DNA of 64,000 bases, taken from NCBI GenBank assembly GCA_963764695.1, contig CAVXTW010000015.1, positions 221,845-285,844 on the forward strand, in the 5' to 3' direction. Below are positions 1 to 57,544 of the stretch, in pieces. The DNA is from an uncultured delta proteobacterium (lineage in GTDB: Bacteria > Myxococcota_A > Polyangia > Haliangiales > Haliangiaceae). Position 1 is the first letter of the stretch. Every line of letters starts with the position of its first letter. The notes beneath the pieces are model-generated. The model did not search any database. It was not told the origin of the DNA and saw nothing but the letters and a program-made list of their open reading frames with translations. The translations under genes were made by a program, and so were the position numbers.

Positions 1-1376
<1,376 letters not shown>

Positions 1377-31068: not shown

Positions 31069-31127
31069 TCGGGGGCCCGCGCGGGCCAGCTTGCGCTATC
31101 TTCGGGGCTGGTCGAGGACTCCTGCCC

Positions 31128-31699: not shown

Positions 31700-31703
<4 letters not shown>
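31128..31703 (+). CDS. ECF-type RNA polymerase sigma-70 factor (STK-associated group, ECF43-like)
   Basis: Region 2 (..[22 protein letters not shown]..) and region 4 HTH (..[26 protein letters not shown]..). 4-bp GTGA overlap with the downstream kinase. Confidence 0.85.
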
Positions 31704-33262
<1,559 letters not shown>

Positions 33263-33871: not shown

Positions 33872-33959
33872 TGGGTTCCTTGCGGCGACGGCCGTGCGGG
33901 ATAGACAGGACAGCCGCACGAATGTGACCGCCGACCGAAAAGAAACCCGGAGGAGTCGC

Positions 33960-35225
33960 TCAGGCGCCCGGCTGGCCCGGTAGCGTCACCTCCATGATGG
34001 CGCCGCCGTCGTCGCCGACCGTCCCGAGCACGAACATGCGCCCGTCGTGGATCGCCACGTACCCCCAGCGGACGCCGTGGGCCGGGAGCTGCCACACGTC
34101 GACGATCTCGCCGGTCTCCTCGTCGATCCGGGCCAGCGCGGGCGACAGCACCGACACCACGGTCCACAGGTCCGAGCCGTCGTAGGCCAGAGAGCCGGTC
34201 GCCAGCTCCTCGGGCAGCGCGATGGTCTCGAGCAGCGCGTTCGGCTCCACGCCGGTGTCGACCCGGAGCAGGAAATCGCCCGCCGGATCCGGGTCGCGAG
34301 CGGCGATCCAGGCGATGTCGGCGTCCAGGTCGACCGCCATGCTGATCACCTGCATCAGGTTGCCGAGCGTGGTTGTGTTGATGGATTCGGTCGAGCCGGC
34401 CGCAGAAGTGAGCATCGCCTCCTCGTCACCTCCGCAGCCACAGGTTGCCCAGAAGGATCCCGCCTGCCAGGCGCGGATGAAGGGCGGGTAGAAGGCGTCC
34501 GGCGGCGTGATGAGCTCGCCGGTCTCGGCGTTAACCGCGCGCAGCGGGTACGCGACGGGATCCGGAAACTCGTCGGACACGTAGAACAGCGTGCTGCCGT
34601 CGAACTCCAGCTCGGAGTAGCTCGTCGGCTCGGGCAGGTCCTCGTGCAGGCTCAGCTCCTCGACCATCTGGCAGGACGGCATCGGCAGCGCTTCGGTCGG
34701 CCGCGACAGGAACAGGAACTGCCCGTCGCCGTCGAACAGAGTGAGGGTCTCGCCGTCGCGCTCGCTGATGGTGAAGACCTGCCCGACCGGATAGCCGGCC
34801 GGCGCGAAGTTGAGCACCAGCGAATCGTCGTGGAGCAGCGCGGTGACCGGGGTGCAGGTGACGAAGTCGTCGCTCGGGCCGCCAAAGACGGTCAGGCCGG
34901 TTCCGTCTGCGTCGAGCCTGAGCGCCACGCTGCGGATGGTCGGGCCGGCAAGCGGCAGGATGTGGCCGCCGGTCACGACCCAGTCGCCGAGGAGGCCATC
35001 CGGCTGCGCGTCCCCGGCGCCCGCATCGGGTGCACCGTCGTCTCCGTCGTCTCCGTCGTCTCCGCTGTCACCGCCGTCGTCGTCATCGGCGCCCGCGCCA
35101 TCACCGCCGTCGCCGACCCCGCCACACCCGGGCCCGAAGACGGCGCAGGCGACCAGGAGCGCCGCGACGCCGCGGGTGAGTAGTCGATCGAGATCGAAGC
35201 AAGGGACAGGTGCTGGTGTGAGCAT
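33960..35225 (-). CDS. Hypothetical lipoprotein with a long Asp/Gly-rich acidic linker
   Basis: ATG at 35225 (MLTPAPVPCFDLDRLLTRGVAALLVACAVFG, LVAC lipobox). Linker DDDDGGDSGDDGDDGDDG, then a ~330-aa domain. Confidence 0.5.
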   Translation of the reverse strand: MLTPAPVPCFDLDRLLTRGVAALLVACAVFGPGCGGVGDGGDGAGADDDDGGDSGDDGDDGDDGAPDAGAGDAQPDGLLGDWVVTGGHILPLAGPTIRSVALRLDADGTGLTVFGGPSDDFVTCTPVTALLHDDSLVLNFAPAGYPVGQVFTISERDGETLTLFDGDGQFLFLSRPTEALPMPSCQMVEELSLHEDLPEPTSYSELEFDGSTLFYVSDEFPDPVAYPLRAVNAETGELITPPDAFYPPFIRAWQAGSFWATCGCGGDEEAMLTSAAGSTESINTTTLGNLMQVISMAVDLDADIAWIAARDPDPAGDFLLRVDTGVEPNALLETIALPEELATGSLAYDGSDLWTVVSVLSPALARIDEETGEIVDVWQLPAHGVRWGYVAIHDGRMFVLGTVGDDGGAIMEVTLPGQPGA

Positions 35226-35356
35226 CGGCGCTGGAAATGCACGGCCGGTGCCACCGCGGGTGCTTCGCTCGCTCGACCACTTGCCTCGCTGCCTTCGCCG
35301 CGTCGCCGGTTGTGCGCGCAGGTTGCGCGCGCAATCTGCCCTCGGGCGGATCGACC

Positions 35357-38300
35357 TCAGCGCAGGGCGTATGCGTCGAGGATGGTCTGCTCGACGGTGC
35401 CGCCGGTCTCTGCCTCGGCACGGGCGCGCAGCGAGACGGTGCCCGTCTCGTCCGGATGTTCGACGAGCGCCACAGCGCAATCGCCGAAGCGGAGCACGGT
35501 GACCTCTTGCCAGGTCTCGCCGCGATCGTGGGAGGCTTCCACGGTCAGCTCGGGTCAGGGGCGAGACGGGCGCTCCGGCCTGGCGCTCGATCGAGAGCGG
35601 GATGACGATGGGGCGCCCGGCCGGGGCCCGGCCGTACTCGTCCACCCGGGGCGCGAACCCCACGGTCATGAGCGGCGGCAGGACCGGGTCGGGTCCGGCG
35701 GCGTGCTCCGAGTCGAAGGTCCACGCGACCTGCACGTCGGTCGAACAGCCTCGAATCGGCCGCCGTGCGACTCGACCTCGAGCCGGTAGCGCCCGGGATC
35801 GACGGGCACCTCGAAGGTGGCGACCAGGAAGACGTCGCTCTCGCCGATGAGCACGCCGTCGCGATGCAGGCGAACCTCGTTTGTGGCCCTGAAGGAGCCG
35901 CCGGCGCGGCCGTTCGTGTCGCTGTAGAGACTCTCGAGAGAGACACGGAGCTCGTCGCCGGTGCGCACGATGACGCCCGGATGGCCCAGCGGGGGGCGCA
36001 GTCCCGGTCCGGCCACCGCGGCGTCCCAGCGCGCGCGGTAGCGGCCGCCGGCCCGGTAGGTGGTCGGGGGGAGCACGATCCGGAACGTCTCGACCTGGTC
36101 GTCGACCGCCTCCCACATCGAGGTCGCCCAGGTGAGGTTCTCGGTGCTGTAGTACTCGGTGCGGGTCATCGGGAGCCGGAACTCCGATGTCGGCCCCTGT
36201 GAGGGCGGAGCCTTGATGCCTGTCGCGAGACCGTTCGGGAACAGGGACGCCCGCGACGTGGATGCCTGTCCGCCGTACTCGGCGTGGACCGTGGCCAGGT
36301 CGCGGTGCTCGAGATGGCGCACGAACCCGGTCGGGAATCGGCCCGGGTCCGGAAAGAACTGGAGGTAGTAGTCGTACGGGCTGTCGGAGAAGAGCTGCGG
36401 GGCGCCCGGCGCGTGTGGCTCGGTCCACTGGCTGACGATGCCGGACACGAGCTCGGATTCCGGCGCCGGCGCGCCGAGGTGAGCGGTGTAGATCGCCACG
36501 AATCCGGGCTCCTCGTCGCCGGTGCCGAAGTACGTGTACTGGCCGCTCCAGCGGAAGTCCTCGGTGCGGTGATCGTAGGTGACGACCTCCAGGTGCCGGC
36601 GGGCGGTCGGACGGGGCACGCGGACGTCAACCGGCTGCGCGCTCCGTGCGTCGAGAGACACGGCGACAGGCTGGTTCACGTCGAGCACCGGCTGCACGAA
36701 GATCGCGCCGACCTCCTGCCCGGCGGCCTCGAAGACGACCAGCGACTCGAGGTTGTAGCGTCCGACCGGCACACGGGTCAACGTCGCGCCGACGGCGCCG
36801 CCCAGATCCTCGACCGCCTCCCCCTCGAGATTGACCAGGAAGGTGAAGCCGAGGGCCGGGTTCCCGTCGCGGTCGAGGTAGGTGAGGTTTACGTCGTAGC
36901 TCTCCACCTCCTTGTCGATCGCCAGCGGCGTGCGCACGACCTGCTCGCCGGCCGTCGCGACCAGGGCGCCCGCATAGAGGCCGTCCGGTCCAGATACGCG
37001 CGTGTCGACGGTGAGGGTCGCCTGCGCCGCTCCGCCCGCCGGGACGGTGAGCGCGGCCGGTTCGACCGCGAACATGCCGGGCGGTGGCGCGGCAGGGCCG
37101 CTGGCCTCGATCGCGAGCTCCAGGGTCAGCGGAGCGGTGCCGCTGTTGTGGTAGGTCACCGTGCGGACGGCAGGTTCGTCGTCGTCGTGCGGCCACGGCG
37201 CGCGGCCGAGGCTGATGCTGGCCGGCGCGGCGAACACCGACTGGTCGATGGCGCGAGCCAGATCCACGCGGCCGGCTCCCTCATCGAGCACGCCGGCGCC
37301 CGGGCCCGGTCGGGCCGAGCCCATCAGCGCGGCCTTGAGCTCGGCCGCGCGCCACTCCGGGTGCTGCTGGGCGAGGAGCGCGGCCGCGCCGGTCACGTGC
37401 GGGGCCGCCATCGAGGTGCCGGACACCCGGGCGTAGAAGTCGTCGACCGGATCCTCGTCGCCGACGTCGGTTCCGACCGCGCGCGCCGCCTCGATGTCAA
37501 CGCCGGGCGCGGTGATGTCGGGCTTGATGGCGCCGTCGCCGATGCGCGGGCCGCGGCACGAGAACTCGGCCAGCTCGTCCTCGACGTCGACCGCGCCGAC
37601 CGAGAGCGCGGCGTCTGCCGTGCTCGGCGAGCCGACCTGAAGCTCATCGGGGCCGCCGCAGCCCCCCTCGTTGCCGGCCGAGGCGACGAACAGCGTGCCG
37701 TGCTCGGCGGTGAGCGCGTTGATCGCCTGCTCGAGCGGATCCACGTCCGGCGTGTCCGCGCTGCCGAAGCTGAGGTTGACGATGGCGGCGCCACTCGCGG
37801 CCGCCCACTCCAGGCCCTCCAGGATCGCCGAGTCGGAGCAGCTGCCCAGTCTGCATACCCTGCCGATCAGCAGCTCGGCGTCCGGCGCGATGCCGCGATG
37901 GACGCCGCCGTCGGCCGCGCCGCTGCCGGCCGCGATCGACGCGACGTGGGTGCCGTGTCCGAAGTCATCGGCCGGGCTTGGATCGCCTTCGATGAAGCTG
38001 CGCGCCTCGACGATGCGGCCGGCGAAGTCGGGATGTGCGGCGTCGATGCCGGTATCGAGCACGGCGATGGTCACGCCGAGCCCGGTGTAGCCGGCCTCCC
38101 ACGCGGCCGGCGCGCCGATCTGGGGCGCGCTGCGATGAAGGACGAGCTTGCGCTTGCCGTCGAGCCACACCTTGTCGCCCCCGGTCGCAAGGCGCGCCTG
38201 CCCGGCGAGCGCGGTCCAGGCGGCGGCCGCGATGTGCTTGGGGACGCGCATCGCCGCGCCGCGCAGGCTGGGCAGCTGGCGGACCATGCGCGCGCCGCCG

Positions 38301-38794
38301 GCGACCAGAGCCGTGCCGCTGCGCGCCATGCCGGTGCGGCGGCGGGTGCGATCGGCGGCCCGGTCGGTGACGATGACCGGCAGGTCCGTGCGGTGCGCAT
38401 CGTCGTACTCGAGCTCGAGAAGCCCGGTGACGTCGAACAGCCGGCGATCGAGAGCGCCGGCCGCGATCAGACGGGCCGCGTCGTCCGGCACGACGTACTG
38501 GTGGCCGCGGATCACGTGGCCGCGAAAGCCGATCCCGCGGCGGCCGGGACCGGGATCGATCGTGTACCTGCCGTCGGTGTGGACGAGCACGCGGTCTCCG
38601 GTCAGGAGCGTGACTGTCCTCGGCGCGCCGGACCTATCGATCCCATCGGTCGCCGCGCGGTCCATTGCGTCGTCCGGTGCAGCCTGATCGCCGTCGCCCG
38701 GACGGCTGTCAACGTCGCGTGCGTCGCCGCAGGCGAGCAGCGCGCTCATCGAGACAGGTAAGAAGAGGCAGAGCAATACAGACGCTCGATTCAT
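35357..38794 (-). CDS. Subtilisin-like serine protease (peptidase S8) lipoprotein with a C-terminal BNR/Asp-box-containing region; two apparent frameshifts in the 3' end (~35760 and ~35560)
   Basis: ggagg RBS + ATG near 38794 (MNRASVLLCLFLPVSMSALLACG). Catalytic triad motifs VAVLDTGID, HGTHVASIAAG, GTSMAAPHVTGAAALL. After the stop at 35666 the protein-like text continues in other frames and ends ..SHDRGETWQ.. (Asp-box) at 35357. Confidence 0.85.
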
Positions 38795-38984
38795 TCGTTG
38801 TCCTCCAAGGAAGCCAGTCAGCAGATCGAGCTGGTAGGACGGGCCGCGACGCGGGAGTCGGACACGAGACTCTGGCCGCGCTCGCGTGCGTGATCTCCGC
38901 CGCATCGCGGTCCCATGGTCGTGACTCTCTGTGGCTCGAGGTGCCGAACGTTGAGAGGATCGGCGCGCGAAAGACAGGCGTACT

Positions 38985-41286
38985 GTGGTCCTCGTGACCT
39001 CGAACCCGCCGCTCGCACGAACCGGCGCTGCCGCTCTCGCCGGCGCGCTCCTTTTCTGCATGGCCGGGGCTGCCCTCGCGCAGCCGAAGACGAGACGCCA
39101 CGTCAACTCGCTATCAGGAGTCGAGTGGGCGTGGAGCGGGATGCTGTCCCGGCGTTCCACGGCCGCGCCGGTATCGATCGCCCGCGCGTTCGCCGCCTCC
39201 GTGCTTCCCGCCGGCGTGCGGGCGAGCGACCTGGCGACGGTGCGCACGGCGGCCCTGCCCCGCGGCGGATCGATCGTGGTCCTCCAGCAGCGCGCCCGGA
39301 CGCCTTCGGGTCGTCGGCGGTCAGGTCGCGGTCCGCATCGACGCCGCGGGCCGCGTGCGCTGGGCCGCGTCGCGGGCGCGCGCCCTGCCCTCGGGTCTGG
39401 CGCTGGTCCCGTCTCTCACCCAGGACCAGGCAGCAGCCGTGGCCGGCTGGGTCCCGGGCCGAAGGCCGGGTGCGCCTCGCTTCGAGCTGGTGGTGCACGC
39501 CCCGGCGTCGAGCGAACCGCGCCTGGCTTACCAGGTGACCCTGCCGTTCGACCCGGCGCTCATCGAGGTCCGCCGCGTCTTCGTCAACGCGCACACCGGC
39601 CGCGTGATCGCGCGCGACAACCTCGTCCGCGAGGTCGGGCAGGCGCGCGCCTTCGGGATCAATCCGGTGAAGACACCGGCGACGGAGATCGTCCAGCTGG
39701 CCGGGCTCGACGACGGCGCCACCACGCTGACCGGACCGGACGCCGTCGCGGATGGATGCATCGACGACGCCACGTGCGTCAACGTCGGCGGGTTCTTCGT
39801 CCACGGCTGCGCGCCCGAGCAGACGGCGCTCGCCGACCAGAACGGTGACTTCCTCGCGTACGACTTCGCGTCGGACACCGACCCGGAGGACTCGTTCTCC
39901 GAGGTCCAGATCTTCCACCACACGGCCGTGGCCTTGGCCCGCGCACGCGAGCTGGGCGGCTTCGACGGTCTCGACCAGCCGCTCCACCTGATCGCGAACC
40001 ACCGCCAGCCCGACTTCGATGACTTCGACTGCGACGGGCCGATCTACCTGGGCAACGGGGAGCTTCAGCCGTTCGACAACGCCTTCTTCAACCCCTCCGG
40101 CCAGGGCGGCGACGGCGTGCCGGCGATGGTCTTCGGCCAGGGCAGCGTGAACGACTTCAGCTACGACGGCGACGTCGTCTACCACGAATTCGGACACGCC
40201 GTCATGAACCAGTTCGCCCCGGAGCTCGGATTCGGCGGGCCGGATCAGTACGGCGTGGATTCCACTCCGCACGGCCTGCACGAGGGCTACGCCGATCTGA
40301 TGACCATGTTCGTCACCGGCGATCCGGAGATCGCGGAGTACGCATCGATCAACTTCGGCGTGGAGATCCTGCGCAACATCGACAACGACCTCACCTGTCC
40401 CGCGGGGCTGGTCGGCGCGGGACACCTCGACTCCGAGGTGATGAGCGGCGCGATCTGGGCGGCCCGCGAGGCGCTACCGGAGGCGGACCGGACCATCTTC
40501 GACGAGTCGGTGTTCGCGGCGCAGCGCGCCTTCGGCGCCTCCGAGCGCTTCGGCAGCGCCGCCCAGCTGACGGTCATGGAGGTGGAGGCAGCCCTCGGCT
40601 CCGGCGCTGCGGAGACGGTCGCCGCGGTCTTCACCGCGCGCGGCTTCGACGATTGCGCGACCCGGGTCGCCGACGCCGCGGTCCCGCATCGCCTGCTCCA
40701 GCTGGGCGGCGGTTTCAGCACCGAGACCTCGCCACATGCGTCGATCGTGCAGTGGCGGCTGGTTCTCGACGAGACCGCCGGCGCCATCCAGGTCAACATC
40801 GCCGAGGTGATCGATCTGTTCTTCGGGAAGGTCATCGTCAACGCCGATCTGGAGGTCATCGTCAAGCCGGGCAGCGCGCCGATCCTGTGGACCGACGGCA
40901 CGGCAGAGGAGGAGCGGACCGCCGACCACACCCTCTCCGCCCCGTTCGTGTTCAGCGAGGACGCGCGGAGCGTGGTCTCGGCTCGAGCCGTCGTCGACGG
41001 TCCGTTCGAGCCCGGCGAGTACCACCTGCAGCTGATCGGCCGCGAGCTCGGCATCGAGGCGCGCAACACCACGATCAGCGCGGTCCCGCTCCCGGGCACC
41101 CCCGACGCCGGACCATCCGAGCCCGACGCCGCCCCCGATCCAGGCGATGACGACGGAGCCGGCGCCGACGGCGGAGACATCGACGACGGCGGCTGCGGCT
41201 GCCACTCCTCGCGACCGGATGGCACCGCCGCCAGTGTGCTGCTGCTCCTCGCCGCCCTCTGGCTGGGATCACGCCGGCGCCGGTGA
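38985..41286 (+). CDS. Secreted Zn metalloprotease (M4/M36 thermolysin/fungalysin-like) with a MYXO-CTERM-type C-terminal sorting tag; one frameshift near 39300-39350
   Basis: GTG start + signal peptide (ARTGAAALAGALLFCMAGAALAQP). HExxH (VVYHEFGHAV) plus a downstream EGYADL third-ligand-like motif. C-terminus DDGGCGCHSSRPDGTAASVLLLLAALWLGSRRRR. Confidence 0.8.
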
Positions 41287-41347
41287 CGTGGACTGGCCCG
41301 GGGAGACACTGTTCGAGTCGCATCCGACGCGGGTGTATAACGTCGGC

Positions 41348-41857
41348 ATGAGCGACGCGCGCGATGCGGTGGCCGAGGCACTGGCGCTGAACAGGCGGCT
41401 GGCCGCGACCTTGCTGGTGAAGAAGCAGGAGCTCGAGGCCCAGCTGGCGGCCGGGGCGACGACCGAGCGCGCCGCGGTCGTCGCTGCCGAGCTGGCGGAC
41501 GTGGAGGCGCAGTACCGCAGCGCGCTCGCCGAGATCAACGAGCTGCGCAAGCTGGGCGATCAGGCGCTGGTCAACGAGGCGCGCGCGGTGGCGGCCGATG
41601 CGCTGCCGGGCGATCCGGTGGCCACGAGCTACGAGGACCGGGCGCTGGCCGCGGCGCGCGAGCACATCCTCGAGCTGGACGCGCAGGCCGGGCTCGGCGC
41701 CGAGGCGCCAGCGCGACCGGCGCCGGCGACCGCGGTGAAGAGCCGCGAGGAGGCCGAACGCGAGGCGCGCGCGGAGTTCGAGGCGCTGCGTGCGCGGCGG
41801 ACAGCCGAGCCGGCGCCGGAGCCCGGCCCGAAGCCGCGGCCCAAGAAGACGCTCTGA
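41348..41857 (+). CDS. Hypothetical coiled-coil protein (Ala/Glu-rich)
   Basis: 169-aa ORF from an ATG at 41348. Heptad-like E/A/L-rich sequence. No strong RBS. Confidence 0.4.
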   Translation: MSDARDAVAEALALNRRLAATLLVKKQELEAQLAAGATTERAAVVAAELADVEAQYRSALAEINELRKLGDQALVNEARAVAADALPGDPVATSYEDRALAAAREHILELDAQAGLGAEAPARPAPATAVKSREEAEREARAEFEALRARRTAEPAPEPGPKPRPKKTL

Positions 41858-41903
41858 TCTCCGCGTCGACGGTCGGGACGCGACGCGCGACCGCGGCCCG
41901 CCG

Positions 41904-42596
41904 CTACAGCAGGCGCTCGTCGGCCAGGACGCGGCGGATCTCGAGGTAGAGCTCGTAGGGGTACGTCCGGGCCAGGAGCACCGGTGCCTCGCGGCCGAGC
42001 GCGGCCGTCATTCGCGACAGCTCGCCCTCGATGCGCCAGAGGCGGGCGAGCGCGCCCAGGTACTCGCCTCGGCCGCGCGCGATCTCGGTGCGGATGCGGG
42101 CGTCGTTGACCAGGACGAACCACAGGGCGGCGCGGTCTCCGCCGGCCGGCGCTGCGCCCTTCGCCGCAGTCGTCTCGTCACTGGCGCCGCCCGGTCCGGC
42201 CGGGGGAGCCGGAGGAGGCGGCGGAGGCGGAGTCCAGGCGGGCCTCAGCTCGAGGTGGTAGGCGCTGGGCGAGTACTGGATGAGCGCGCCGGTGGCGGCG
42301 TCGGTCAGCCAGAAGCACCCGCTGGTCAGGTTGAAGATGGCGACCCCGTTGAGCGACTTCTGCAGCAGGAATCGGGCCGGCTCCAGGCCAGGCCCCCGCA
42401 TGGTGATCACGTGGGTGGCGAAGGTGTCGCGATCGAAGCTCCAGGTGAGCGGCGTGACGCCGACCGGAGCTCCGTCCACCAGCACCTCGGCGCGCGCCGG
42501 GTTGGAGCTGAAGACGACGTTCTGGCGGCTGCTGCTGAAGAGGGTGGCGCAACCGCTGCCGGCCACGAGCAGGAGGAGGAGCGCGCACGGCCTCAT
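41904..42596 (-). CDS. PEGA-domain lipoprotein
   Basis: MRPCALLLLLVAGSGC lipobox. PEGA-like motif SNPARAEVLVDGAPVGVTPL. Poly-Pro linker. Confidence 0.6.
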   Translation of the reverse strand: MRPCALLLLLVAGSGCATLFSSSRQNVVFSSNPARAEVLVDGAPVGVTPLTWSFDRDTFATHVITMRGPGLEPARFLLQKSLNGVAIFNLTSGCFWLTDAATGALIQYSPSAYHLELRPAWTPPPPPPPAPPAGPGGASDETTAAKGAAPAGGDRAALWFVLVNDARIRTEIARGRGEYLGALARLWRIEGELSRMTAALGREAPVLLARTYPYELYLEIRRVLADERLL

Positions 42597-42674
42597 CGCA
42601 CGACTCTGCCAGAAGCGGCCGCCCGATGGGCAGGATTCTGGCCTCAGCCGCTTCGCCTGGTCACTGCGCTCCCG

Positions 42675-44063
42675 TCACGTCGCGACCGCGACGCTGGCCG
42701 CGGTGGTGGCGAGCAACTCGTCGAGGAACGCCGACGCCCTGTCGGGCGTGCCGGCGAAACCGGATCCGCCGACCGTGATCGCGCCGTGGTTGCCGTCGTC
42801 GACGATCGTGATGACGCACCCGCCGATCGGGTCGGCGTCGGTGGCGAGGCGTGATGGCGATGACACCGCGCACAGCGCCGGGATCGGCGTGTCCATCGCG
42901 ATGCGCGACAGCAGCGCGCGGCCGCCGATCACGGCGGCGACGTTCTCGAACCAGTGCGGGCGCCTGGCGCTGATGCTCCTGCGCTTCCACGACACCGGCG
43001 CCGGAAGGGCGCGCGCGGCGGCCAGCAGGCGGGAGACCAGGCCGTTCGCGGCCGCCTCGCGCGCGAACACGTCGCGGACGCGCGCCTCGAACGCGGAGAA
43101 CGGCTCGGGCACGCCATCGGTGAAGCGCACGCTCGTGGTCGCCGAGACGATGCGGCGGCGGAGGCGCATCGGGTCGTCCATGCGGCCGCGCGCGACCGGA
43201 ACCTGGATGGTCGGCGAGAACCTGGCGTCGCGCCGGCCGGCGTGGCGATGCAGGATGCGTCCGAGCTCGTACGCGAGCGGGATCACGCGCGGCGTCGGCC
43301 GGGGTAGCTCGCGCCAGGTCACCGCGAGCGGCACCGCGCCGGCAACCGAGGCGAGCCGGGGCAGCGCGATGTGGCCGTTCGCCGGGGTAGCTGGCGTCCT
43401 GGCAGCGCCATCGACGAGTGAGGCGATCCGCGACGCGAGGCTGGCGTGGCCATAGCCGTCGATGATCAGGTGACAGGTCGAGACCACGGCGAGTTCCCCG
43501 GCGCGGCCCAGCCCGAGCCACGGACCGCCTCGCTCGGTCCACGCGCGGCGATGGCCATGGCGCGCGGTCTCGATCGGCTCGTCACCGAGCGACACGCACA
43601 CGAACGGCGTCGCGCCACGCCAGGGCGGCGGCTCCGCGCCGCGAAGCACGGCGGCGAGCAGCGTGGCGAGCGACGGATCGTCCAGCGGCGCGGTGAGGCA
43701 CCGGTCGCCGACCGCGAACGCCGCGACGTCGAGCAGGCTGGGGCGCGGGTCGGCGCCGCTCGAATGAGCGATCGTGACCGCAAGCGGCTGATCCGGGAGA
43801 GTGCCGTCGAGCTCGCGGAGCGCGGTGCGCGCGGCCCTCGCGCGGCGGATCGCGTCGACCACTGGATCCCGCGGGCGGGTCGCGCGATACCCCATGAACG
43901 TATCGGCATCCGGCTCGGCATCGCATGCCAGGTAGATCTCGGGCGTCGCCCGGGTCTCGGCGAGCGCGACGCCGCCGGCCAGCAGCCACCACCGCCGATC
44001 GATCTCCGCGATCGCGGCCAGCTCACGCTGGAGCTCGGCGGTCCGGCGCGCCCATCCTCTCAC
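42675..44063 (-). CDS. Putative acyltransferase of the condensation-domain / WS-DGAT superfamily (degenerate HHxxxDG)
   Basis: 462-aa ORF with TCHLIIDGYG, resembling the HHxxxDG active-site motif of WS/DGAT and PapA5-type enzymes. Size fits WS/DGAT (~460 aa). Confidence 0.45.
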   Translation of the reverse strand: MRGWARRTAELQRELAAIAEIDRRWWLLAGGVALAETRATPEIYLACDAEPDADTFMGYRATRPRDPVVDAIRRARAARTALRELDGTLPDQPLAVTIAHSSGADPRPSLLDVAAFAVGDRCLTAPLDDPSLATLLAAVLRGAEPPPWRGATPFVCVSLGDEPIETARHGHRRAWTERGGPWLGLGRAGELAVVSTCHLIIDGYGHASLASRIASLVDGAARTPATPANGHIALPRLASVAGAVPLAVTWRELPRPTPRVIPLAYELGRILHRHAGRRDARFSPTIQVPVARGRMDDPMRLRRRIVSATTSVRFTDGVPEPFSAFEARVRDVFAREAAANGLVSRLLAAARALPAPVSWKRRSISARRPHWFENVAAVIGGRALLSRIAMDTPIPALCAVSSPSRLATDADPIGGCVITIVDDGNHGAITVGGSGFAGTPDRASAFLDELLATTAASVAVAT

Positions 44064-44136
44064 GAGACCTCCTCGTTCCCGGGAGCCTACCCGAAGCCGG
44101 AGCCCACCGGTCGAGCAAGAGCGCGCGGCATCCGGA

Positions 44137-45252
44137 TCACGGCCTGCGCTTCGCCGCCAGACGCCAGCCGTCTCGCGTGCGAGCAGAGGTCGTCACCTGT
44201 ACGGCCGCGGACAGGCTGTCGCTGAACCCCTTCTTCCTGTCAACGTCGCGCCCCGGGAGCTCGGAGCCGTAATAGAAGCGCTGGAGTAGCCAGACGATGA
44301 ACGACGGCCGGTACATGAACAGGTCGGCGACAAGCGACATCTGCGCCTCGTTGTCCCAGAACACGCGCTTCGGTGCCCCCTCGCTGCGCCGCAGCTTCAG
44401 CACGTCGGTCGACACCGGACACCGCGTGATGCACGCCCGGCACATGTGGTCGCGCCGCGGGCCGAAGAAGTCGCCCGAGATCAGGCGATCGCACGATTCG
44501 GTCCGCGTGATCACGTAGTCGTCGAAGGCACCGACGGGGCACGCCTCGACGCACAGGTTGCACGTGGTGCAGTCCGGCAGCTTCCACTGGTCACCGAGCG
44601 GCGTCGGATCGTAGCGATCGACGGGGGCGTTCAGGAAGATGACATTCAGCTTGCAGTTGAAACCGAAGCGCCGCGAGAAGAACAGCGCGTTCTTGCCGAT
44701 CGTGCCGAGACCCGCGGCGGTCGCGACCTCCTTCAGCAGCACCGGGATGCTCGCCTGCGAGTCGGCGAACGCGACCCCCTCTCCGTACCGCTGGTTGGCG
44801 TGGCCGGCGACATCGGCAGCCATGCTCTCGACGAAGTAGTCGGCCGCAACGTCGCTGAACAGCACCAGCACGATCACCGACGGGCTCGGGATCGAGCGAT
44901 GAGTCATCCGCAGCTTGCCGTGCATGTGCAGGCTGCGGCGCTCGAGCGGTCCATCGCCGAAGCGCTTGCGGAGCTCGCCGCTCTCGAGCACCACCGCATC
45001 GAACGGAACACCGGGAGGCGCCGCATCGCGCAGCCACCCGTCGACGAGATCGCGCTCGATGACGACATCCTCGCGCCGCGCCCGTGTCGGGTCGCCGAAC
45101 AGCCTCGCCCGCGCCTCCTCGTACGCCGGCCGCGCCCACGGCGTCGCGGCGGCCCGGATCGCCCGCCAGTTCGCCTGCCAGCCGAGATCGCTGGCGTGCC
45201 ACCTCGCATGACGGACCCACCGCGGCACGTGTTTCCGGAGCTTGTCGAGCAT
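44137..45252 (-). CDS. 4Fe-4S dicluster protein, epoxyqueuosine reductase (QueG)-like
   Basis: ATG at 45252 (MLDKLRKHV...). Two ferredoxin motifs CTTCNLCVEACP and CRACITRCP. The rest of the long 689-aa ORF is antisense-looking. Confidence 0.5.
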   Translation of the reverse strand: MLDKLRKHVPRWVRHARWHASDLGWQANWRAIRAAATPWARPAYEEARARLFGDPTRARREDVVIERDLVDGWLRDAAPPGVPFDAVVLESGELRKRFGDGPLERRSLHMHGKLRMTHRSIPSPSVIVLVLFSDVAADYFVESMAADVAGHANQRYGEGVAFADSQASIPVLLKEVATAAGLGTIGKNALFFSRRFGFNCKLNVIFLNAPVDRYDPTPLGDQWKLPDCTTCNLCVEACPVGAFDDYVITRTESCDRLISGDFFGPRRDHMCRACITRCPVSTDVLKLRRSEGAPKRVFWDNEAQMSLVADLFMYRPSFIVWLLQRFYYGSELPGRDVDRKKGFSDSLSAAVQVTTSARTRDGWRLAAKRRP

Positions 45253-45320
45253 GGCAGCTCGACCGTAGCACCGACGTGCGCGGTTGGCCGGTGGCATCGG
45301 CCAGCCGTGCACCCGGCGGG

Positions 45321-46370
45321 TCACTCGAGCGCGGCGGAGAAGCGGCCGTCGGTGAAGTCGTTGCAGTTGAAGCCGGGGCTGTTCGCGTAGCAGACCTGTC
45401 CCTGGAAGGTGCCCCAGATCGCGCGGTCGTTGCGCCCGGCAATGGTGACCGTTCCGCCGTCGCCTGCCCGGCTGGTGTAGAGCGTGAACTCGAAGGGACG
45501 GGACAGGTCCATGCGCGGCACGGGGTCGCCGAAGGCGTGCTCGCCCGGCTCGAGCGAGGTCAGGAGCAGGTCGACTCCGTAGCCGTCGCTGTCGGGGCCC
45601 GGGGCGACCTTGAAGGCGAGGTTGTACCGGCCCTCGAAGGTGGTGACACGCGCGCGCTGACGGCCCTCGAAGGGGCCGGAGCCATCGAGGTGCCACACCG
45701 CGCTCATCCGCGTGGCCGAGGAGAGGGCCGGATAGTCGGCCGGCACGCCGTAGTCGATGGTCGGGTCCGCCGGGGCGACACCGGTGGCCAGGTCCACGAC
45801 GTCCAGCTCGCCGCCGTAGAGCCGGAAGCAGTTCGCTCCCGGCGTGTCGCGGAGGCAGTACTGCCCCTCGAACGAGCCGCGCAGCCGACCTGGCTCGTCG
45901 GCCTCGAGGACGAGCGTGCCGTAGCCGCCCGGCGTTCGCGTCTCGTAGGCACCGGACCCGGCCTCGATGACCTCGAGGTAGCCGTCGGTGCCGCTGAGAT
46001 CGTAGCGACCCGGCGCGATCGACGGGAGATGGAAGGTCAGCGTGGTGCCATCGGCTTCGAAGCGGATGTAGATGAGCTCGATGTCCGGGTCGAACAGCGC
46101 GCCGGTGCTGGTCTCGCTCTCGCGGACCGGTAGCTCGCTGACGTCGGCGACGACCGGGTTGGGAATGTGCTCGTAGCCGCTGGTGTCGACCGCCCAGCTC
46201 GCCCACCCGCGGTCCTGGCTGCCGCCGCCTCCGCCGCCTCCGCCGCCTCCGCCGTCACCGTCATCCCCGGAGCCGTCATCGAAGCCGCCGCCGGACTCGC
46301 CGCCGCACGCGGCGCCGACGGCGCAGATCACAGCCAGCAGGAGATGACGCGGATGGAGGAGGTGGCCCAT
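45321..46370 (-). CDS. Hypothetical lipoprotein with a poly-Gly/Asp linker and two internally duplicated Cys-pair domains
   Basis: ATG at 46370 (MGHLLHPRHLLLAVICAVGAAC). GGGGGGGGGGG linker. Repeated modules GRLRGSFEGQYCLRDTPGANCF and AIWGTFQGQVCYANSPGFNCNDF. Confidence 0.55.
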   Translation of the reverse strand: MGHLLHPRHLLLAVICAVGAACGGESGGGFDDGSGDDGDGGGGGGGGGGGSQDRGWASWAVDTSGYEHIPNPVVADVSELPVRESETSTGALFDPDIELIYIRFEADGTTLTFHLPSIAPGRYDLSGTDGYLEVIEAGSGAYETRTPGGYGTLVLEADEPGRLRGSFEGQYCLRDTPGANCFRLYGGELDVVDLATGVAPADPTIDYGVPADYPALSSATRMSAVWHLDGSGPFEGRQRARVTTFEGRYNLAFKVAPGPDSDGYGVDLLLTSLEPGEHAFGDPVPRMDLSRPFEFTLYTSRAGDGGTVTIAGRNDRAIWGTFQGQVCYANSPGFNCNDFTDGRFSAALE

Positions 46371-46514
46371 GGGCCTCTCGCATTGCGCGTCTCGTGCCAC
46401 TGGTCGGCGGGCCGCGATCCGTTGAAGAGACAGGCGCGACGGGCACGTGGGCCGGCCCGCGTCCCAGTGGCGGCCCATGGGACAGGGCGGAGACACAGCC
46501 GGTCTCGATGCCCC

Positions 46515-46955
46515 TTATCTGGGGACGCAGACGGCGATGATCCGCGCGAAGTACGTGGCTCGCCATTCGCGGCGCCCGGGGACCTGGTGGATCTCCCGCG
46601 ACGTGATCTCCACCGTGAACCTGACGCGCCCGCTCTGGTGCGCGGTCAGAGCTGGAAAGTCAGCCACGTTCGCCAGCTCCAGGCGACTCGCGTGGTGGTG
46701 CGGCATCGCGATGTGATCGGCGGGCCGCCAGTCGCCTCCGTCGGAGACCATGTCCACCCAGCGGGTCGCCGGCACCTCCACATCGACGTACGACTTCAGC
46801 TGCGCCAGGGCCGATTCCTCGCATGGAGACACGCTGCCCGGCCGATCGGCGGCGGACGTTTCCCGACCCTGAGGAGCCTCCTCCGGCGCCTTGTCTCTCG
46901 GCACGCAGCTCATCGTACAGCTCGCGGCGATGGCCGCAACGATGCCGATCCTCAC
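46515..46955 (-). CDS. Small hypothetical lipoprotein
   Basis: MRIGIVAAIAASC lipobox. 146 aa. Confidence 0.45.
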   Translation of the reverse strand: MRIGIVAAIAASCTMSCVPRDKAPEEAPQGRETSAADRPGSVSPCEESALAQLKSYVDVEVPATRWVDMVSDGGDWRPADHIAMPHHHASRLELANVADFPALTAHQSGRVRFTVEITSREIHQVPGRREWRATYFARIIAVCVPR

Positions 46956-46989
46956 TCGAGGACAGAAATAGCACGCCTGCTGTCTCCGA

Positions 46990-49900
46990 TCAGCGCCGGC
47001 GGCGGACCGTGACCACCACGGTGTCCGGGGCGCTTGGCAGGCCGAGCGAGTCGGTCACCACCAGCCTGAAGTTGAACTGCCGATCGGACGGCACGATCGG
47101 CGCGATGAAGAACGGCGTGGCCGTGTTCGGCAGGAACAGGATGACCCCCGCGGGCGCCGTCCACGCGAAGCGCAGCGAGTCGCCGTCCGGATCGCTCCCC
47201 GAGCCGCGCAGGAACACGATGTCGCCCGTCCGCACCGTGATGTCGGCTCCCGCATTCGCGACAGGCGGGCGGTTCACATTCGTGACGCTGACATCGACCG
47301 TCGCCGGCGGGCTGGCCAGCCCGCCGGGATCGCGCACCACCAGGGTGAAGCGCAGGACCCGGCCGGAGCGACCGACCTCGGGCGCGATGAACGTCGGCCG
47401 CGCCGCGGTCGGGCTGCTCAGCGTGATCCCGGCCGGCGCGGCCCACGCGTAGGTCAGCGCGTCCCCGTCCGGATCGCTGCTGCCGGTCCCGTCGAGCGTC
47501 GCCGTTGTCCGCTCTCCCACGGTCTGCGGCGGGCCGGCGCTGGCCACCGGCGGGCGGTTCACGGCGGCGTTGGTGACGGTCACCGCCACCGTGGCCGGGC
47601 TCGACGCGCTCACCGCATCGCGAACGACCAGCGAGAAGGTGAGGGTCGCGCCGGCGGGGCCCACCTCCGGCGCGGTGAAGGTCGGCTGCGCGGCGGTCGC
47701 GCTCGACAGCGCGATGCCGGCCGGTGCGGTCCACTCGTACGTGAGCGGCAGGTCGCCGTCCGGATCGCTGCTGGCCGTCCCGTCGAGGGTCACGACGGTC
47801 CGCTCGACGACGGTCTGCGGCGGGCCGGCGTTCGCGACCGGCGGGCGATTCACGTTGCGCACGTGGATCACCGTCGTCGCGGCCGGGCTGGTCGCCAGCC
47901 CGTCGGACACGACCAGCCTGAAGGCGACATCGATCCCGGTGACAACGGCCTCCGGCGCGACGAACGTGGGCCGGGCCGCGGTCGCGCTGGACAGCGTGAC
48001 CGGAGGCCCGGCGATCTGCGTCCACTGATAGGTCAGCGAATCGTCCGGGTCCGGATCCACCGACCCGGTCCCGTCGACGGTCACCGTGCTGCCCTCGTCC
48101 ACGGTCTGCGCCGGGCCGGCGGAGGCCACCGGCGGGCGGTTGACGTTGACCACGGTCACCGTCGTGAGCGCCGCGGCGCTGTCGGACGAGCCGTCGCTCA
48201 CCACGAGCTGAAACACCAGCTGCGACGAGCCCGGGTCGCGCAACACCGGCGGCGCGAAGAAGCGCGGACCGACCGCGGCAGGGTCGTCGAGCGTGACCGC
48301 GGGGCCGGAGACCTGCGACCATCGATAGGTCAGCGGCTCGCCGTCCGGGTCGATGCTGGCGGAGGCGTCGAGGAACACGGTCATCGGCGGGAAGGCTGGC
48401 CCCGGGCCGAGCTCCGGCACCGTCTGGTCGGCGCCCGCGTTCGCGACCGGCGGGGCGTTGCAGGTCGCCGACTGCGGGACGAGCCCGGGGAACGGCGGCG
48501 CGAGCAGCCCGCTGACCTGAATGTCGTCAATCTCCCAGCCCGGCGACGAGACCCCCGGATCGGACGCGACCCGGAAGCGGATCCGCACGACCCTTCCGCC
48601 GGCGCTGGTGCCGAGGTTGACCGACGCCGCCCGCATGGACGGATAGCCGGCGCTGGTGCCGGTGAAGGCCGGGCGCCCGGCGAGCGGGTTGCCGGCTGCG
48701 AGAAGGCCGGTGTAGGCCACGCCGCTGCCGGGAAGCGCGGAGACGTCGGTCCAGGTGGCGCCGTCGTCGGTCGAACACCTCGATGACGCCACCGTCGAAG
48801 TTGAGGTTGTTGACCGCGTCGCGCTCGAGGGAGTGGCGATGCAGGAACGAGAGCACGAGCGCCTGGCCGGGTGCGACCGCGAGCCGCGGCGAGGACAGCT
48901 CCGCCGTCGCTGCCACGCTGGCCGAGCGGCACTGGTAGGCGTGGCCGCCGGGCGAGGTGGAGACCTTTGTCCACAGCGCGTCGGGCGGCGACGAGGGGAG
49001 CGACGAGGTCTGGCCCCACACGGTCGAACAGCTCGGCGTTGTCGACGTTCGACTGGCCGGGCAGCTCGTCGGCGTTGCCGGCGAACTGGTAGGTGACCGG
49101 CGCGGCCTCGCCGGCGCCCGCGTCCGGCGTTGCCACGGCGATGGAGATCGTTGTGTCGGCGGCGAGCCCGCTGGCGGCCACGCGGACCGTCGCCTCCGCG
49201 GTGGCGGCGCGCGCCGTGGCCGGGAAGGTGATCGCGTCGCCGTCGGGGAAGACGATGCCGGGTGTTGTCGAGCTGACCGTCGCGCTCAGGGCCGGAGCGT
49301 CCGCGTTGCCGACATTGCGGAAGGCCACGCGCAGGGTGCCGGTCTCGCCGTCGTCGAGGATGCCGTCAGCGGCGCACACCGCGGTGTCGTCGTCGAGCAG
49401 GCGCGCGCCGGTCTGTTGCACGGCCGGGCCGAACGCGAAGCTCTCCACGACCGGCGTGTTCGTGTTCTCGCCGCGCGGCGGCGCGATGGCGTTGACGCCG
49501 GCGCCGCGCCTCGCGAACGCCGCCCCGCACACCTGGTAGTCGGCCGGGTCGCCCAGCAGGGCGGTGAGCAGAAGCGCGTCGCGCGCCTCGAGCAGGGTCG
49601 GGTTGGCGGGCGTCACCTTGTAGGCGGCGACGACGTAGTCGCGCATGCGGTCGCGCGCCTGGGCGAAGGTCAGCCGCGGGGCGGGGCCGACCGTGTCGCG
49701 CAGGAGGCCCGCGTAGCACTCCCACAGCATCGTGGCCCACACGGTGCCGGTGGCGTGCACCTGCGAGTTGACGCCGATGAAGTTTGGCGGCGGGCTGGCG
49801 GGGAGCGGATTGACGTCGGAGATGTGCCTGAACGTCATCGGGTTCTTCGTCATGTCCGTCGAGTACGGATAGCGGCGGATGCCGAAGTAGTACGAGTTCG

Positions 49901-52041
49901 GGTCGCTGCTGGTCGCGTACGCGCCCATCGCGTACGTCCCCTGCCAGCTGTCGTTGAGAGGACTGGCGGTGTCCTCCTCGCGCGCCGTGACGAGCAGGGC
50001 GTGGAAGTCGGCCCAGCCCTCGCCGAGTCCGCGCGCCATGTTGTTCTGCAGGCCGGCCGCGTCGAAGATGAGGCGGTTGGAGATGTAGTGGCCCCACTCG
50101 TGGGCGACGACCTGGTTGTCGATGTCGCCGTCGAGCAGCTTCACGCGCCGCACCAGCTGTCCGGTCACCGCCGGGCCGGCAGCGAGCGCGCCGCGGAAAC
50201 GGTCGCCGTCGGCCAGGTTGAGCGAGACGGCCCCGAATCGTGATCGGGACGGTGGGGGTGCCGCCCATGGCCGGCGGGATGGTCGGGTTCGCCGAGGCGG
50301 CGACGTTGGCGATGATGACACCGGCGCCGCCGGCGGCCTGGACCTGCTGCGCCTTGCCGGCGAAGCCGTTGCACGCCGCCGGCCCGCCGCGGTCGACGAG
50401 GACGATCTTGCCGGCGTAGTCCCCGACCAGCGGGGCGCAGGCGTCCACCGGGCTGGCCCGCGCGATGTCGGCGGACAGCTCGAAGTTGAGCGGCCCGAAC
50501 ACCGCGGTGCCGACACTGGTGAAGTCGCCGGCAAGCTCGGGCGGCGCGGCGACGGTGACCCGGAGCTCGATCGGCTTGGTCCACAGGTACATCTGCATGC
50601 GCGGGCGTCCGCCGTCGGCCGGCGTCGACATGTTCGCGTTGTTGAAGCCACCCGAGTCCTGGGCCTCGGCGCGCAGCACGTCCCCCTCCACGCCGCCGCG
50701 GCCGAAGTTGGACAGCTGCGCGTTGCCGGCCGCCTCGGTGAAGCCGGCCGCGTAGTACCAGTCGTGAAACCAGTTGTTGTCGTAGAAGAGCTGCGTGACC
50801 GCGGCGAGGCGCTGCACCGCGTTCTCGTCGGCGCCCAGCTCGGTGTCGAAGGTGTAGTCGAAGACGCCGGGCGCCGAGGCGACGCCGCGGAGATCCGCCG
50901 TACCAGCCAGGAACCCGTCGGGCGCAGCGAGGTCGAGGTAGGCGTCCACGTTGTTGCCGAGCGTCTCGGTCGCTCCGACCGGCAGCCATGGATCGTCGAC
51001 CCCGACCGCGGTGAGGCTCGAGAGCGTCACCAGCTGGGCCGGGACGAAGAGCGGCTGGAACCCGTCGGCCAGACCGGTCGGGTGCGGCGTGACAGCGGTC
51101 CCGTGCGGCCCGTCCCACGGGGTGAACAGGCCGCTGGCGTCGGCGTATGCGCGATACGTGACCGGATTGTCGTACGCGGTCAGGTCGTTGCGCCACAGCA
51201 CGCGGCCATCTCCCGCGTCGATCACGTAGGCCACGTGGCGCGCGCGGTGCGCCGCGTCGTCGCCGAGGTCGGCCTCGACGTAGTAGGCCGGCACCAGCGA
51301 GTCCGGCGCAATGCGAAAGAAGATCGGCTTCGCGCGAGTCGGCGCGGCGTCGGCGGCGGCCGCGACGCGGGTGGCTGCTGCCGGACGCAGGCGAGCGGCC
51401 TGGTATCCGCCGGCGGCAGGCGCGGCTGCTTCGAAATCGGAAGCAGCGATGGCCGCGCCGGCCAGGTCGCTCATGGCCGCCGTGATGGCGGCGGCGGAGC
51501 CCGACGCGAACGCGTCGCGCGCGCGGCGGCCGGGCTGCTTGGCGGCCGCGGGGAGGTCGCCGGTGACGAACCCGGTCAGCGCCACGGCGTCGAGATTGCG
51601 ATCCATGGCCACCGACAGCTGCTCGCCGAACACCTCGACGCCGTCGACCCGCCGGCCGAAGCGCGCGATGATCGCGCCGCGTCCTGTGTCGTGCAGCTCG
51701 CGCAGGTCGAGGGCGCCGGCCTGCTCCGGCGCGAGGCGGTAGTAGCGGGCGAAGCTGACCACGTGCGCGCGCGCCGCCTCGGCAGGACTGGCGACGCCGG
51801 CCGCGATGCGCGGACGCGCGGGCGCATCGGCCCACAGGAAGGTCGGCGCCCTCGCGATCGCGTCGGTGTGGGCGACGCGGCCGGTGGCTGGCGGCGATGA
51901 AGGTGCTGCGGTCGGTGTCGAGCCGGACACGACCGGACCCGATGGCCCCTGCCCCGACGGCGACGGCGGATCGTCCCGATCGCCCGCGCACGCCGCCAGC
52001 GCACCCATTCCCAACGCGACCAGCACGAGCCTCTTCGTCAT
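46990..52041 (-). CDS. Very large secreted M36 (fungalysin-like) metalloprotease lipoprotein with a PA domain and five C-terminal PKD-like repeats; about 3 frameshifts
   Basis: ATG at 52041 (MTKRLVLVALGMGALAACAG lipobox). FTP/PA-like N-region, real to ~50260. The catalytic HEWGHYISNRL ... GEGWADF lies in a second frame (ORF 48381..50651). An Asp-box STDDGATWTDV then 5 tandem ~95-aa repeats (NVNRPPVANAGP.QTV.E...LDGTGSSDPDGD.LTY.WT.P.G) run in ORF 46990..48792. Frame changes at ~50250, ~49030 and ~48800. Confidence 0.8.
46993..48440 (-). repeat. Five tandem PKD/K319L-like Ig-fold repeat units (protein-coding repeats, ~285 bp each)
   Basis: Repeated NVNRPPVA(N/S)AGP..QTV...LDGT(G/A)SSDPDGD..LTY(E/A)W pattern within the protease C-terminus. 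Confidence 0.7.
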
Positions 52042-52193
52042 CCACCACCCCCTTCACCCATCCTCGGAGGCGGCACACTAGCACGCGCTGAAGACGATTC
52101 TTCTCGTCTTTGGGGCGCACGCGGCCAATGCGTGCGTTGGCGTACGGTCCATGGAGACGCGGGACAGCCGTGGTTCACCGGTAGACTCGGGCG

Positions 52194-52865: not shown

Positions 52866-52884
52866 CCGGCGCGCGCTCCGGCGT

Positions 52885-54978
<2,094 letters not shown>

Positions 54979-55106
54979 GTCCCCGTTCTACCAGCCGCGC
55001 CGCGTGCGCGGGAAGAGATGGGAACGGGAGCGACACCAGACAGGAGCCTCTGGTGCACACCATTGCCATTGCCCGGGTCGCGCCCGGCGTGCGATGCGTA
55101 AGCGAC

Positions 55107-55889: not shown

Positions 55890-55947
55890 GGGGCAATCGG
55901 GTTGGTAGCCGGTGGCCGCCGCGCCGGCCGGAGGTCAGACTCAGGCG

Positions 55948-57333: not shown

Positions 57334-57544
57334 GAAGCTTCCACCGCGGACGACAGGCGGAACGGGAGCGTGCAGCGTCTTCGCCGTTCACCCCTCAGGG
57401 GTGCCGGCATCCAGCGCCATGCGGGAGCAGCCGGGTCCCGTGTCGGCGTCGAGCCCCGTCGATCTGAGCGCTTGCCCGGGTGCGTGAACCCGTCCAAGCT
57501 CACCCGGGGCGTGTGGTTCGGCGTCGGGTTCGGGCGGGTCGAGC

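Follow-up and report, generated by a model that had tools for sequence, protein, structure and literature searches.

Three probably independent genes for exported proteases within 17 kb of an uncultured Polyangia-class chromosome, with frameshifts that probably reflect assembly errors

Three large genes for secreted or surface-anchored proteases fall inside one 17 kb span (35357..52041) of a 64,000-nucleotide stretch of DNA from an uncultured delta proteobacterium (GenBank assembly GCA_963764695.1, contig CAVXTW010000015.1; the whole stretch is called the window here), which raises the question of whether they form a dedicated system or stand side by side as independent genes. The span holds a family S8 subtilase lipoprotein, a predicted zinc metalloprotease with a MYXO-CTERM sorting tag (the middle protease), and a family M36 fungalysin-type lipoprotein. 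We assign a probability of about 0.78 to the reading that these are three independent exported proteases of described types on a chromosome of an uncultured organism of class Polyangia, with no dedicated system involved and with frameshifts that are likely assembly errors. The three enzymes probably contribute jointly to extracellular protein digestion. An earlier description of this DNA, made from the letters alone and called the sequence-only reading below, had proposed a Myxococcota origin from the sorting tag. Homolog searches with the middle and M36 proteases bore this out and placed the organism in Myxococcota, class Polyangia.

Coding frames were called from frame plots of third-position G+C (GC3) and with a simple seven-state Viterbi frame model, since at a window G+C content of about 71% raw lists of open reading frames (ORFs) are swamped by shadow ORFs. 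The frame model placed the S8 gene on the minus strand (35.4-38.8 kb), the middle protease gene on the plus strand (39.0-41.3 kb), and the M36 gene on the minus strand. A short plus-strand gene follows the middle protease up to 41.86 kb, and six co-directional minus-strand genes run from 52.04 down to 41.90 kb. One long plus-strand ORF (36284..38761, 825 aa) was rejected as a shadow of the minus-strand S8 gene by its GC3 phase. The boundaries given in the sequence-only reading were exact gene ends: the S8 gene has its stop codon at 35357, the M36 gene begins with the ATG at 52041, and the middle protease gene runs from a GTG at 38985 to its stop at 41286. That reading gave no strands, and it missed the single extra bases that interrupt all three genes in the window. 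An uninterrupted ORF was found for none of the three (0/3), and seven single-base insertions (3, 1, and 3 in the S8, middle, and M36 genes) account for the breaks. The longest true-frame pieces are 1193, 643, and 891/756/600 aa, and the coding phase shifts without stop or start signals near 35555, 35745, 39295, 50236, 49025, and 48775. The proteins described below are those obtained after removal of the extra bases.

The repaired S8 protein matched the Pfam family Peptidase_S8 (PF00082) with 214.9 bits against a gathering score of 21.8 (2e-63, residues 240-499). D247 (DTG), H280 (HGTH), the oxyanion residue N375, and S461 (GTSMAxP) were invariant among 118 aligned S8 sequences, and the triad and oxyanion Asn aligned with those of solved subtilases. 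The closest PDB match was the Thermococcus subtilisin-like protease 3afg (2.7e-65), which covers the catalytic domain only. The N-terminus, MNRASVLLCLFLPVSMSALLAC followed by G, holds a lipobox (LLAC) read directly from the sequence. The S8 lipoprotein assignment of the sequence-only reading is thus supported by the PF00082 match, the intact D-H-S triad, and the LLAC lipobox. What it called an Asp-box is a nearly invariant Asp-box-like motif, S-x-D-x-G-x-T/S-W: of the 118 sequences, 117 keep the S, D, G, and W, and 112 have T or S at the variable position. This motif is present as a single copy, and the protein has no Pfam BNR match. The full-length architecture is common, occurring in metagenome-assembled genomes of Kofleriaceae (48-53% identity) and in many Micromonospora/Phytohabitans genomes (45-47% over 95% of the length). 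Compared with these large S8 peptidases of about 1,100 aa, the window protein is alike in its full architecture, at 45-53% identity over at least 95% of the length, and in its invariant triad and C-terminal Asp-box-like motif, whereas it differs in bearing a lipoprotein signal. Such a protein would be exported by the Sec pathway and lipidated at the Cys of LLAC, giving a membrane- or surface-tethered subtilase with a beta-rich C-terminal extension of about 650 aa.

The middle protease consists of a signal peptide, an FTP/PepSY-type propeptide, a catalytic part, a C-terminal beta-sandwich, an acidic linker, and the sorting tag. Homologs that are 71-73% identical back both the start at 38985 and the signal peptide by their N-termini. 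Pfam matches to M4 (19.9 against 22.4 bits) and M36 (18.4 against 23.3 bits) both fell at the active site and stayed below the gathering score; among 29 family members, matches at E <= 0.01 were obtained with M36 in 18 and with FTP in 20. In the family alignment, H401, E402, H405, E434, and D438 were invariant, as were the motifs HEFGH, HEGYAD, and YDGDVVYHEFGH. The family profile matched the propeptides of thermolysin, vibriolysin MCP-02, and pro-elastase (LasB) in the PDB at 4.5e-14 to 1e-11; it also matched the Aspergillus Mep propeptide, the propeptide matches together ranging from 4.5e-14 to 4e-4, and weakly the catalytic domain of aureolysin.

An AlphaFold2 model of the 714-aa form had a predicted local distance difference test (pLDDT) score of 83.8 and a terminal helix at residues 696-713. 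In a Foldseek search of this model, M36 and M4 structures were returned at 3e-9 to 6e-7, with the M36 protease Mep (4k90_A) at 3.3e-9, and the M4 proteases aureolysin and LasB gave target-normalised template modelling (TM) scores of 0.72-0.74. Judged from the predicted fold and the invariant HEFGH and HEGYAD, the middle protease is a thermolysin-fold, M4/M36-like zinc metalloprotease, in agreement with the sequence-only reading. Like the M4 enzymes (aureolysin, pseudolysin/LasB, and vibriolysin MCP-02) and the M36 enzyme Aspergillus Mep, it has an FTP/PepSY-type propeptide, HExxH with the Glu of E-G-x-A-D, and a predicted two-lobed fold; in contrast to them, it is extended by a C-terminal beta-sandwich, an acidic linker, and a MYXO-CTERM anchor, and the structural alignments show 14-17% identity. 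A recent duplication linking it to the M36 gene was ruled out, as similarity between the two proteins is confined to 98 aa at the active site (31% identity). The enzyme would be exported by a cleavable signal peptide and fold with the aid of its FTP/PepSY propeptide, which would then be removed, and zinc would be bound by H401, H405, and E434.

The tail of the middle protease is tripartite and lies at the extreme C-terminus (GGCGC...SVLLLLAALWLG SRRRR-stop). With the MYXO-CTERM model TIGR03901 (cut-off 20), the whole protein scored 22.9 bits and its last 64 aa scored 28.5 bits, so the sorting tag that the sequence-only reading had assigned to the 38985..41286 product was recovered by the model; TIGR03382 also matched the tail (21.7 against 15.85). 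The Cys motif, helix, and Arg tail are nearly universal among the homologs aligned, and a six-frame scan of the window found no second tail of this kind. In Myxococcus xanthus, MYXO-CTERM processing involves lipidation of the Cys, cleavage by the myxosortase MrtX, and surface display via the type II secretion system (PMC11980579). Compared with that system, of which TraA is a tested substrate, the middle protease has the same GCGC, hydrophobic helix, and C-terminal RRRR, a disordered acidic linker, and an N-terminal signal peptide, whereas the candidate substrate here is a protease of a Polyangia-class organism, and no sorting enzyme was seen among the scanned window genes. By this likeness, its tail may undergo Cys lipidation, cleavage by a myxosortase of the MrtX/MrtC type, and type II secretion, leaving the enzyme on the cell surface.

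The M36 protein was recognized by its family model. PF02128 (Peptidase_M36) scored 267.4 bits against 23.3 (2.8e-79), and a PA domain within the catalytic domain scored 45.7 bits (7.2e-12). In Aspergillus Mep 4k90_A (1.3e-38), the counterparts of HEWGH and GEGWADF are HEYTH and GEGWSDF, and the alignment falls into two blocks that flank the PA insert. The K319L-like PKD model PF22352 matched in five stretches (181.6 bits, 2.7e-54), and PKD_4 (PF18911) scored 94.6 bits (3.8e-27). The sequence-only reading had named an M36 lipoprotein with a PA domain and five PKD-like repeats; the domain matches and the motif alignment to 4k90_A agree with it, and a lipobox (LAAC) is present at the N-terminus. 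The five repeats are mutually 47-74% identical and pass PF18911, and the classic PKD model PF00801 stayed under its cut-off (21.3 against 23.5). By alignment, the HExxH/HEWGH motifs of the two metalloproteases and the D-H-S motifs of the subtilase sit in catalytic context.

Furthermore, the M36 protein belongs to a family that is named for its dependence on the MYXO-CTERM tag, and it has no such tag, a point that the sequence-only reading overlooked. The model NF038112 (myxosortase-dependent M36 family metallopeptidase) has a cut-off of 1500 and gave the repaired protein 1744.7, the match spanning positions 52-1441 of the 1604 in the profile; positions 1442-1604 remained unmatched, and no Cys motif or helix was found in any frame. 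The protein ends in ...VVVTVRRRR and has neither a Cys-containing motif nor a transmembrane helix there. Compared with NF038112 members (e.g., from Archangium, Corallococcus, and Hyalangium), it has the same order of pro-region, M36 catalytic domain with PA insert, middle domain, and tandem PKD-like repeats, with HExxH and the Glu ligand in context, but a lipobox where most of the family has a MYXO-CTERM tag. Among the top 120 homologs, 86 had a MYXO-CTERM-like tail and 34 did not, and the closest ones (58-67% identity) all lacked it and, like the window protein, bear a lipobox in its place; an N-terminal lipobox was present in 27/34 untagged and 14/86 tagged proteins. Since the closest homologs are untagged and lipoboxes are in excess among the untagged proteins, this clade seems to have exchanged its C-terminal anchor for one at the N-terminus. 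The family name "myxosortase-dependent" fails for the lipobox-bearing clade. Outer-membrane vesicles of M. xanthus are enriched in the M36 protease MepA, whose disruption reduces extracellular protease activity (PMC4158809). MepA offers the best functional analogy for the window enzyme, which would be an N-terminally lipidated fungalysin with five PKD-like repeats serving as a stalk or binding module.

A broader reading of the two metalloproteases can be offered tentatively, and we consider it possible though less probable than its opposite. It holds that the middle protease represents a distinct, Myxococcota-restricted family of the thermolysin clan, lying between M4 and M36, with at least 436 loci, no curated model at threshold, and a routine MYXO-CTERM tag, and that in addition a clade of M36 proteases traded the MYXO-CTERM tag for a lipobox. 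Homologs of the middle protease numbered 35 in a word-indexed search, and 436 relatives were confirmed when the GTDB species representatives were scanned with a pattern. The 80 that were kept all came from Myxococcota (records of Haliangium, Polyangiaceae, Labilithrix, Minicystis, Sorangium, and Byssovorax), with about 40% identity for the best. If this broader reading is true, the middle protease could merit its own peptidase family, and the anchor swap in M36 would be natural evidence that two lipid-anchoring routes interchange for surface display of one enzyme.

To compare gene order, the surroundings of middle-protease homologs were searched at 80 Polyangia loci, as far as 10 kb to either side or less on short contigs. 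An M36 gene within 10 kb was found at 0/80 loci, a weak S8 match at 1/80, and the intervening genes at 0/80. Around the middle-protease homolog at 71% identity lie genes for an extracytoplasmic function (ECF) sigma factor, a protein of metallo-beta-lactamase fold, and CarboxypepD_reg proteins, and the 67%-identical M36 homolog adjoins aminotransferase and aldehyde dehydrogenase genes. Beside the 85%-identical S8 homolog, the FAD-binding/MOSC/CMD block found at 28-31 kb in the window is kept on one side, and an FG-GAP protein stands in place of the middle protease on the other. These differing neighbors in relatives of 67-85% identity indicate that the co-location of the proteases is recent and lineage specific. 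Judged from gene order, it is a local gene-order change, not a conserved operon. Myxobacterial genomes encode very many peptidases, so three in 17 kb are not demonstrably beyond chance.

The same comparison bears on the alternative that the span is a functional protease island, in which co-regulated surface or secreted proteases and accessory lipoproteins serve predation or saprophytic feeding and the M36 gene and five downstream genes form an operon. The arrangement is suggestive, as the proteases make up about 10.8 of 16.7 kb, five genes follow the M36 gene in the same (minus-strand) direction, separated by 20-150 nt, the S8 and middle protease genes are divergent and 190 bp apart, and at least three intervening products carry lipoprotein-like signals. 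However, the synteny is absent in every relative examined, including those at 67-85% identity, and a 4Fe-4S enzyme and an acyltransferase-fold protein without export signal lie between the proteases. Moreover, both flanks consist of ordinary chromosomal genes (a Ser/Thr kinase, an ECF sigma factor, a FadB-like enzyme, and glucose-6-phosphate dehydrogenase [G6PD]), and the scan revealed no shared promoter or terminator pattern. In 35000..52500, including the 190-bp region between the S8 and middle protease genes, no sigma-70-like consensus promoter was found, and terminator-like sites were fewer than expected from shuffled sequence, a scan that is uninformative on operon structure. An island of this kind is therefore quite improbable. 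The dense exoprotease arsenal of the sequence-only reading stands as far as three proteases within 17 kb are concerned, but it is not a conserved unit, and cytoplasmic-type enzymes lie within it.

The frameshifts were assessed against a near-identical metagenome contig of the European Nucleotide Archive (ENA), ERZ25039516:contig_1386 (764 kb), which was found by exact-protein look-up of the 41904..42596 lipoprotein; two further look-ups extended the comparison. This contig is colinear with 21699..57334 of the window and 99.83% identical to it. It lacks all seven extra bases and carries intact called genes of 1144 (S8), 714 (middle), and 1682 aa (M36), the 714-aa call using a downstream start. 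Over the shared 35.6 kb there are 59 differences, including eight indels, every one of which is an extra base in the window; seven lie inside the three protease genes and one lies at 22588. Of all differences, 32/59 fall in GTYRAC hexamers (GTCGAC, GTTGAC, and GTCAAC), which cover about 1% of the sequence, and TCGA-containing sites, of the type that also carries most substitutions, hold five of the eight insertions. This distribution suggests that a methylated GTCGAC (SalI-type) site caused systematic basecalling errors in one or both assemblies. Given the concentration of differences at GTYRAC and the insertions at TCGA sites, a pattern that we take to be that of basecalling error at a methylated site, the frameshifts are treated as assembly errors, the likeliest source being the erroneous insertion of single bases in a long-read assembly. 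The differences between window and contig include positions 36628-36629, 37006, 37588, 44410, and 49043, and several more are at CGATCG. The extra T at 22588, the sole non-protease indel of the compared region, lies in a gene for an FAD-dependent enzyme (22427..24223) and coincides with a Viterbi frame change.

Several observations weigh against the reading of three independent proteases with assembly-derived frameshifts. The three protease genes may be co-regulated, as far as sequence can tell, and no myxosortase (MrtX/MrtC) was seen among the scanned window genes. Seven of eight indels lie in protease genes that make up about 30% of the length (binomial p ~0.001, or ~0.005 when scaled by GTYRAC site counts); these genes hold 27 of 72 GTYRAC sites, and site density alone does not explain the enrichment. 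In addition, the window and the ENA contig share nothing beyond 57334, and with this full divergence the two are not one assembly and could be two strains. Both the indel excess and the structural departure would fit real frameshifts, with all three protease genes being recently inactivated pseudogenes in the window strain, for example through relaxed selection on public-good exoenzymes. However, all indels are +1 insertions, and the five at TCGA-containing sites, which carry most substitutions, are what systematic basecalling error typically produces. At an overall divergence of about 0.1%, it would be extraordinary for a gene to acquire three separate frameshifts, and the three insertions of the S8 gene, like those of the M36 gene, add up to +3 and bring the reading frame back. 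Away from the indels the coding signal is intact (GC3 0.85-0.97), and the same broken-frame pattern is present in other window genes. Real inactivation is thus unlikely, and a small residual probability is kept for it on account of the unexplained indel excess in the protease genes.

With assembly errors as the preferred explanation, the practical lesson is one of data quality, in that motif-associated single-base insertions break three proteases and other genes of the window, and automated annotation of this assembly would give pseudogenes or fragments for all three proteases. Otherwise, the significance lies mostly in annotation, as three large exoproteases are added to the hydrolase repertoire of an uncultured Polyangia lineage. 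The break at 57334/57335 is either a strain rearrangement or a misjoin in one assembly. After 57334, where the G6PD gene ends, the window continues with a sigma-54 activator and the ENA contig with small ORFs and an ECF sigma factor.

The genes between the proteases are varied (Table 1). The gene at 41288..41857 starts 2 nt past the middle protease stop, and its 189-aa product has no Pfam or NCBIfam match. For the 41904..42596 product, the PEGA assignment of the sequence-only reading was not upheld, since PF08308 scored 19.0 bits over 28 residues against the Pfam threshold of 20.8. The 371-aa 4Fe-4S protein had weak matches to Fer4 families and scored 37 bits with TIGR00276 (QueG) against a cut-off of 200. 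In the 349-aa Gly-rich lipoprotein, the N- and C-terminal parts aligned locally with z = 8.4 against shuffles, and no family matched it in Pfam or NCBIfam; the 132-aa product of 46515..46913 likewise had no family match in the domain-family searches.

The 462-aa protein (42675..44063) had been read as WS/DGAT-like. No Pfam or NCBIfam match was obtained even at E <= 10, either for the protein or for 48 family members, and no PDB sequence match was found, including with the 48-member profile. Its family comprises 146 cluster representatives, in which H198, D202, G203, G205, and H206 are conserved within the motif STCHLxVDGYGHA (H-x3-D-G-x-G-H; CHLIIDG in the window protein). The AlphaFold2 model had a pLDDT of 94.4, and Foldseek matched it to carnitine acetyltransferase (3.4e-11), condensation domains of nonribosomal peptide synthetases (NRPSs; ~1e-9), PapA5 (2.2e-8), and also choline acyltransferases. 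By its predicted fold, the protein belongs to a small orphan family of the CoA-acyltransferase/condensation superfamily. It shares this fold and the H-x3-D-G motif with CoA-dependent acyltransferases (carnitine/choline, NRPS condensation, PapA5, and WS/DGAT) but has no sequence-level match to WS/DGAT, and fold and motif fit WS/DGAT, carnitine acyltransferases, condensation domains, and PapA5 alike. The earlier label therefore holds for the superfamily and not for the family.

Table 1. Features of the protease span, in window coordinates
Feature	Position	Strand	Basis or remark
S8 subtilase lipoprotein gene	35357..38794	-	1144 aa after removing extra bases 35552, 35744, 35754; starts MNRASVLL...
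Lipobox region SALLACG of S8 protein	38726..38746	-	
S8 catalytic domain, residues 240-499	37298..38077	-	Pfam PF00082
S8 Asp motif VLDTGID	38042..38062	-	
S8 His motif HGTHVAS	37937..37957	-	
S8 Ser motif GTSMAAPH	37397..37420	-	
Asp-box-like motif SHDRGETW, C-terminal domain of S8 protein	35510..35533	-	homolog conservation
Intergenic region (190 bp) between divergent S8 and middle protease genes	38795..38984	.	gene boundaries
Middle protease, predicted thermolysin-fold (M4/M36-like) zinc metalloprotease	38985..41286	+	~766 aa after removing extra C at 39295
Signal peptide of middle protease	38985..39086	+	
HEFGH of middle protease	40183..40197	+	
HEGYADL of middle protease	40279..40299	+	
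MYXO-CTERM sorting tag GGCGCHSSRPDGTAASVLLLLAALWLGSRRRR of middle protease	41188..41283	+	TIGR03901
189-aa Ala/Glu-rich protein, GTG start	41288..41857	+	called gene on ENA contig
230-aa putative lipoprotein, sub-threshold PEGA-like N-terminal stretch	41904..42596	-	identical protein on ENA contig
462-aa protein, predicted CoA-dependent acyltransferase/condensation fold	42675..44063	-	AlphaFold2 and Foldseek
Conserved motif STCHLIIDGYGHA of 462-aa protein	43443..43481	-	
371-aa 4Fe-4S protein, distantly QueG/reductive dehalogenase-like	44137..45252	-	weak Fer4 matches; length from ENA contig
349-aa Gly-rich lipoprotein, internal duplication	45321..46370	-	local alignment of halves
132-aa protein, no family	46515..46913	-	called gene on ENA contig
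M36 fungalysin-family lipoprotein	46990..52041	-	1682 aa after removing extra bases 50236, 49027, 48774
Lipobox region GALAACAG of M36 protein	51982..52005	-	
M36 catalytic domain	49488..50973	-	Pfam M36; PA insert at about 50175..50445
HEWGH of M36 protein	50088..50102	-	
GEGWADF of M36 protein	50004..50024	-	
Five tandem K319L-like PKD repeats, 92-106 aa each	46993..48453	-	PF22352, PF18911

Elsewhere in the window, several context genes are typical of myxobacteria, namely two Ser/Thr protein kinases (3..1466, minus strand, and 31700..33262, plus strand), a TonB-dependent-receptor-like protein with CarboxypepD_reg and Plug domains (18032..21214, minus strand), and a PAD_porph deiminase (23964..26009, plus strand; 1.5e-57). 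A large RHS/Tc-toxin-like gene occupies 9681..15664 on the minus strand (RHS_repeat 2.9e-26, FG-GAP, and SpvB 7.6e-11); its coding signal runs over at least five frame changes, and it also looks broken by indels. At the far end, 59760..64000 (plus strand) encodes an AAA ATPase with a winged-helix domain and then a Pvc16_N protein (1.5e-24) with CarboxypepD_reg, again with frame changes, and resembles the beginning of a PVC/eCIS-like gene set for a contractile injection system.

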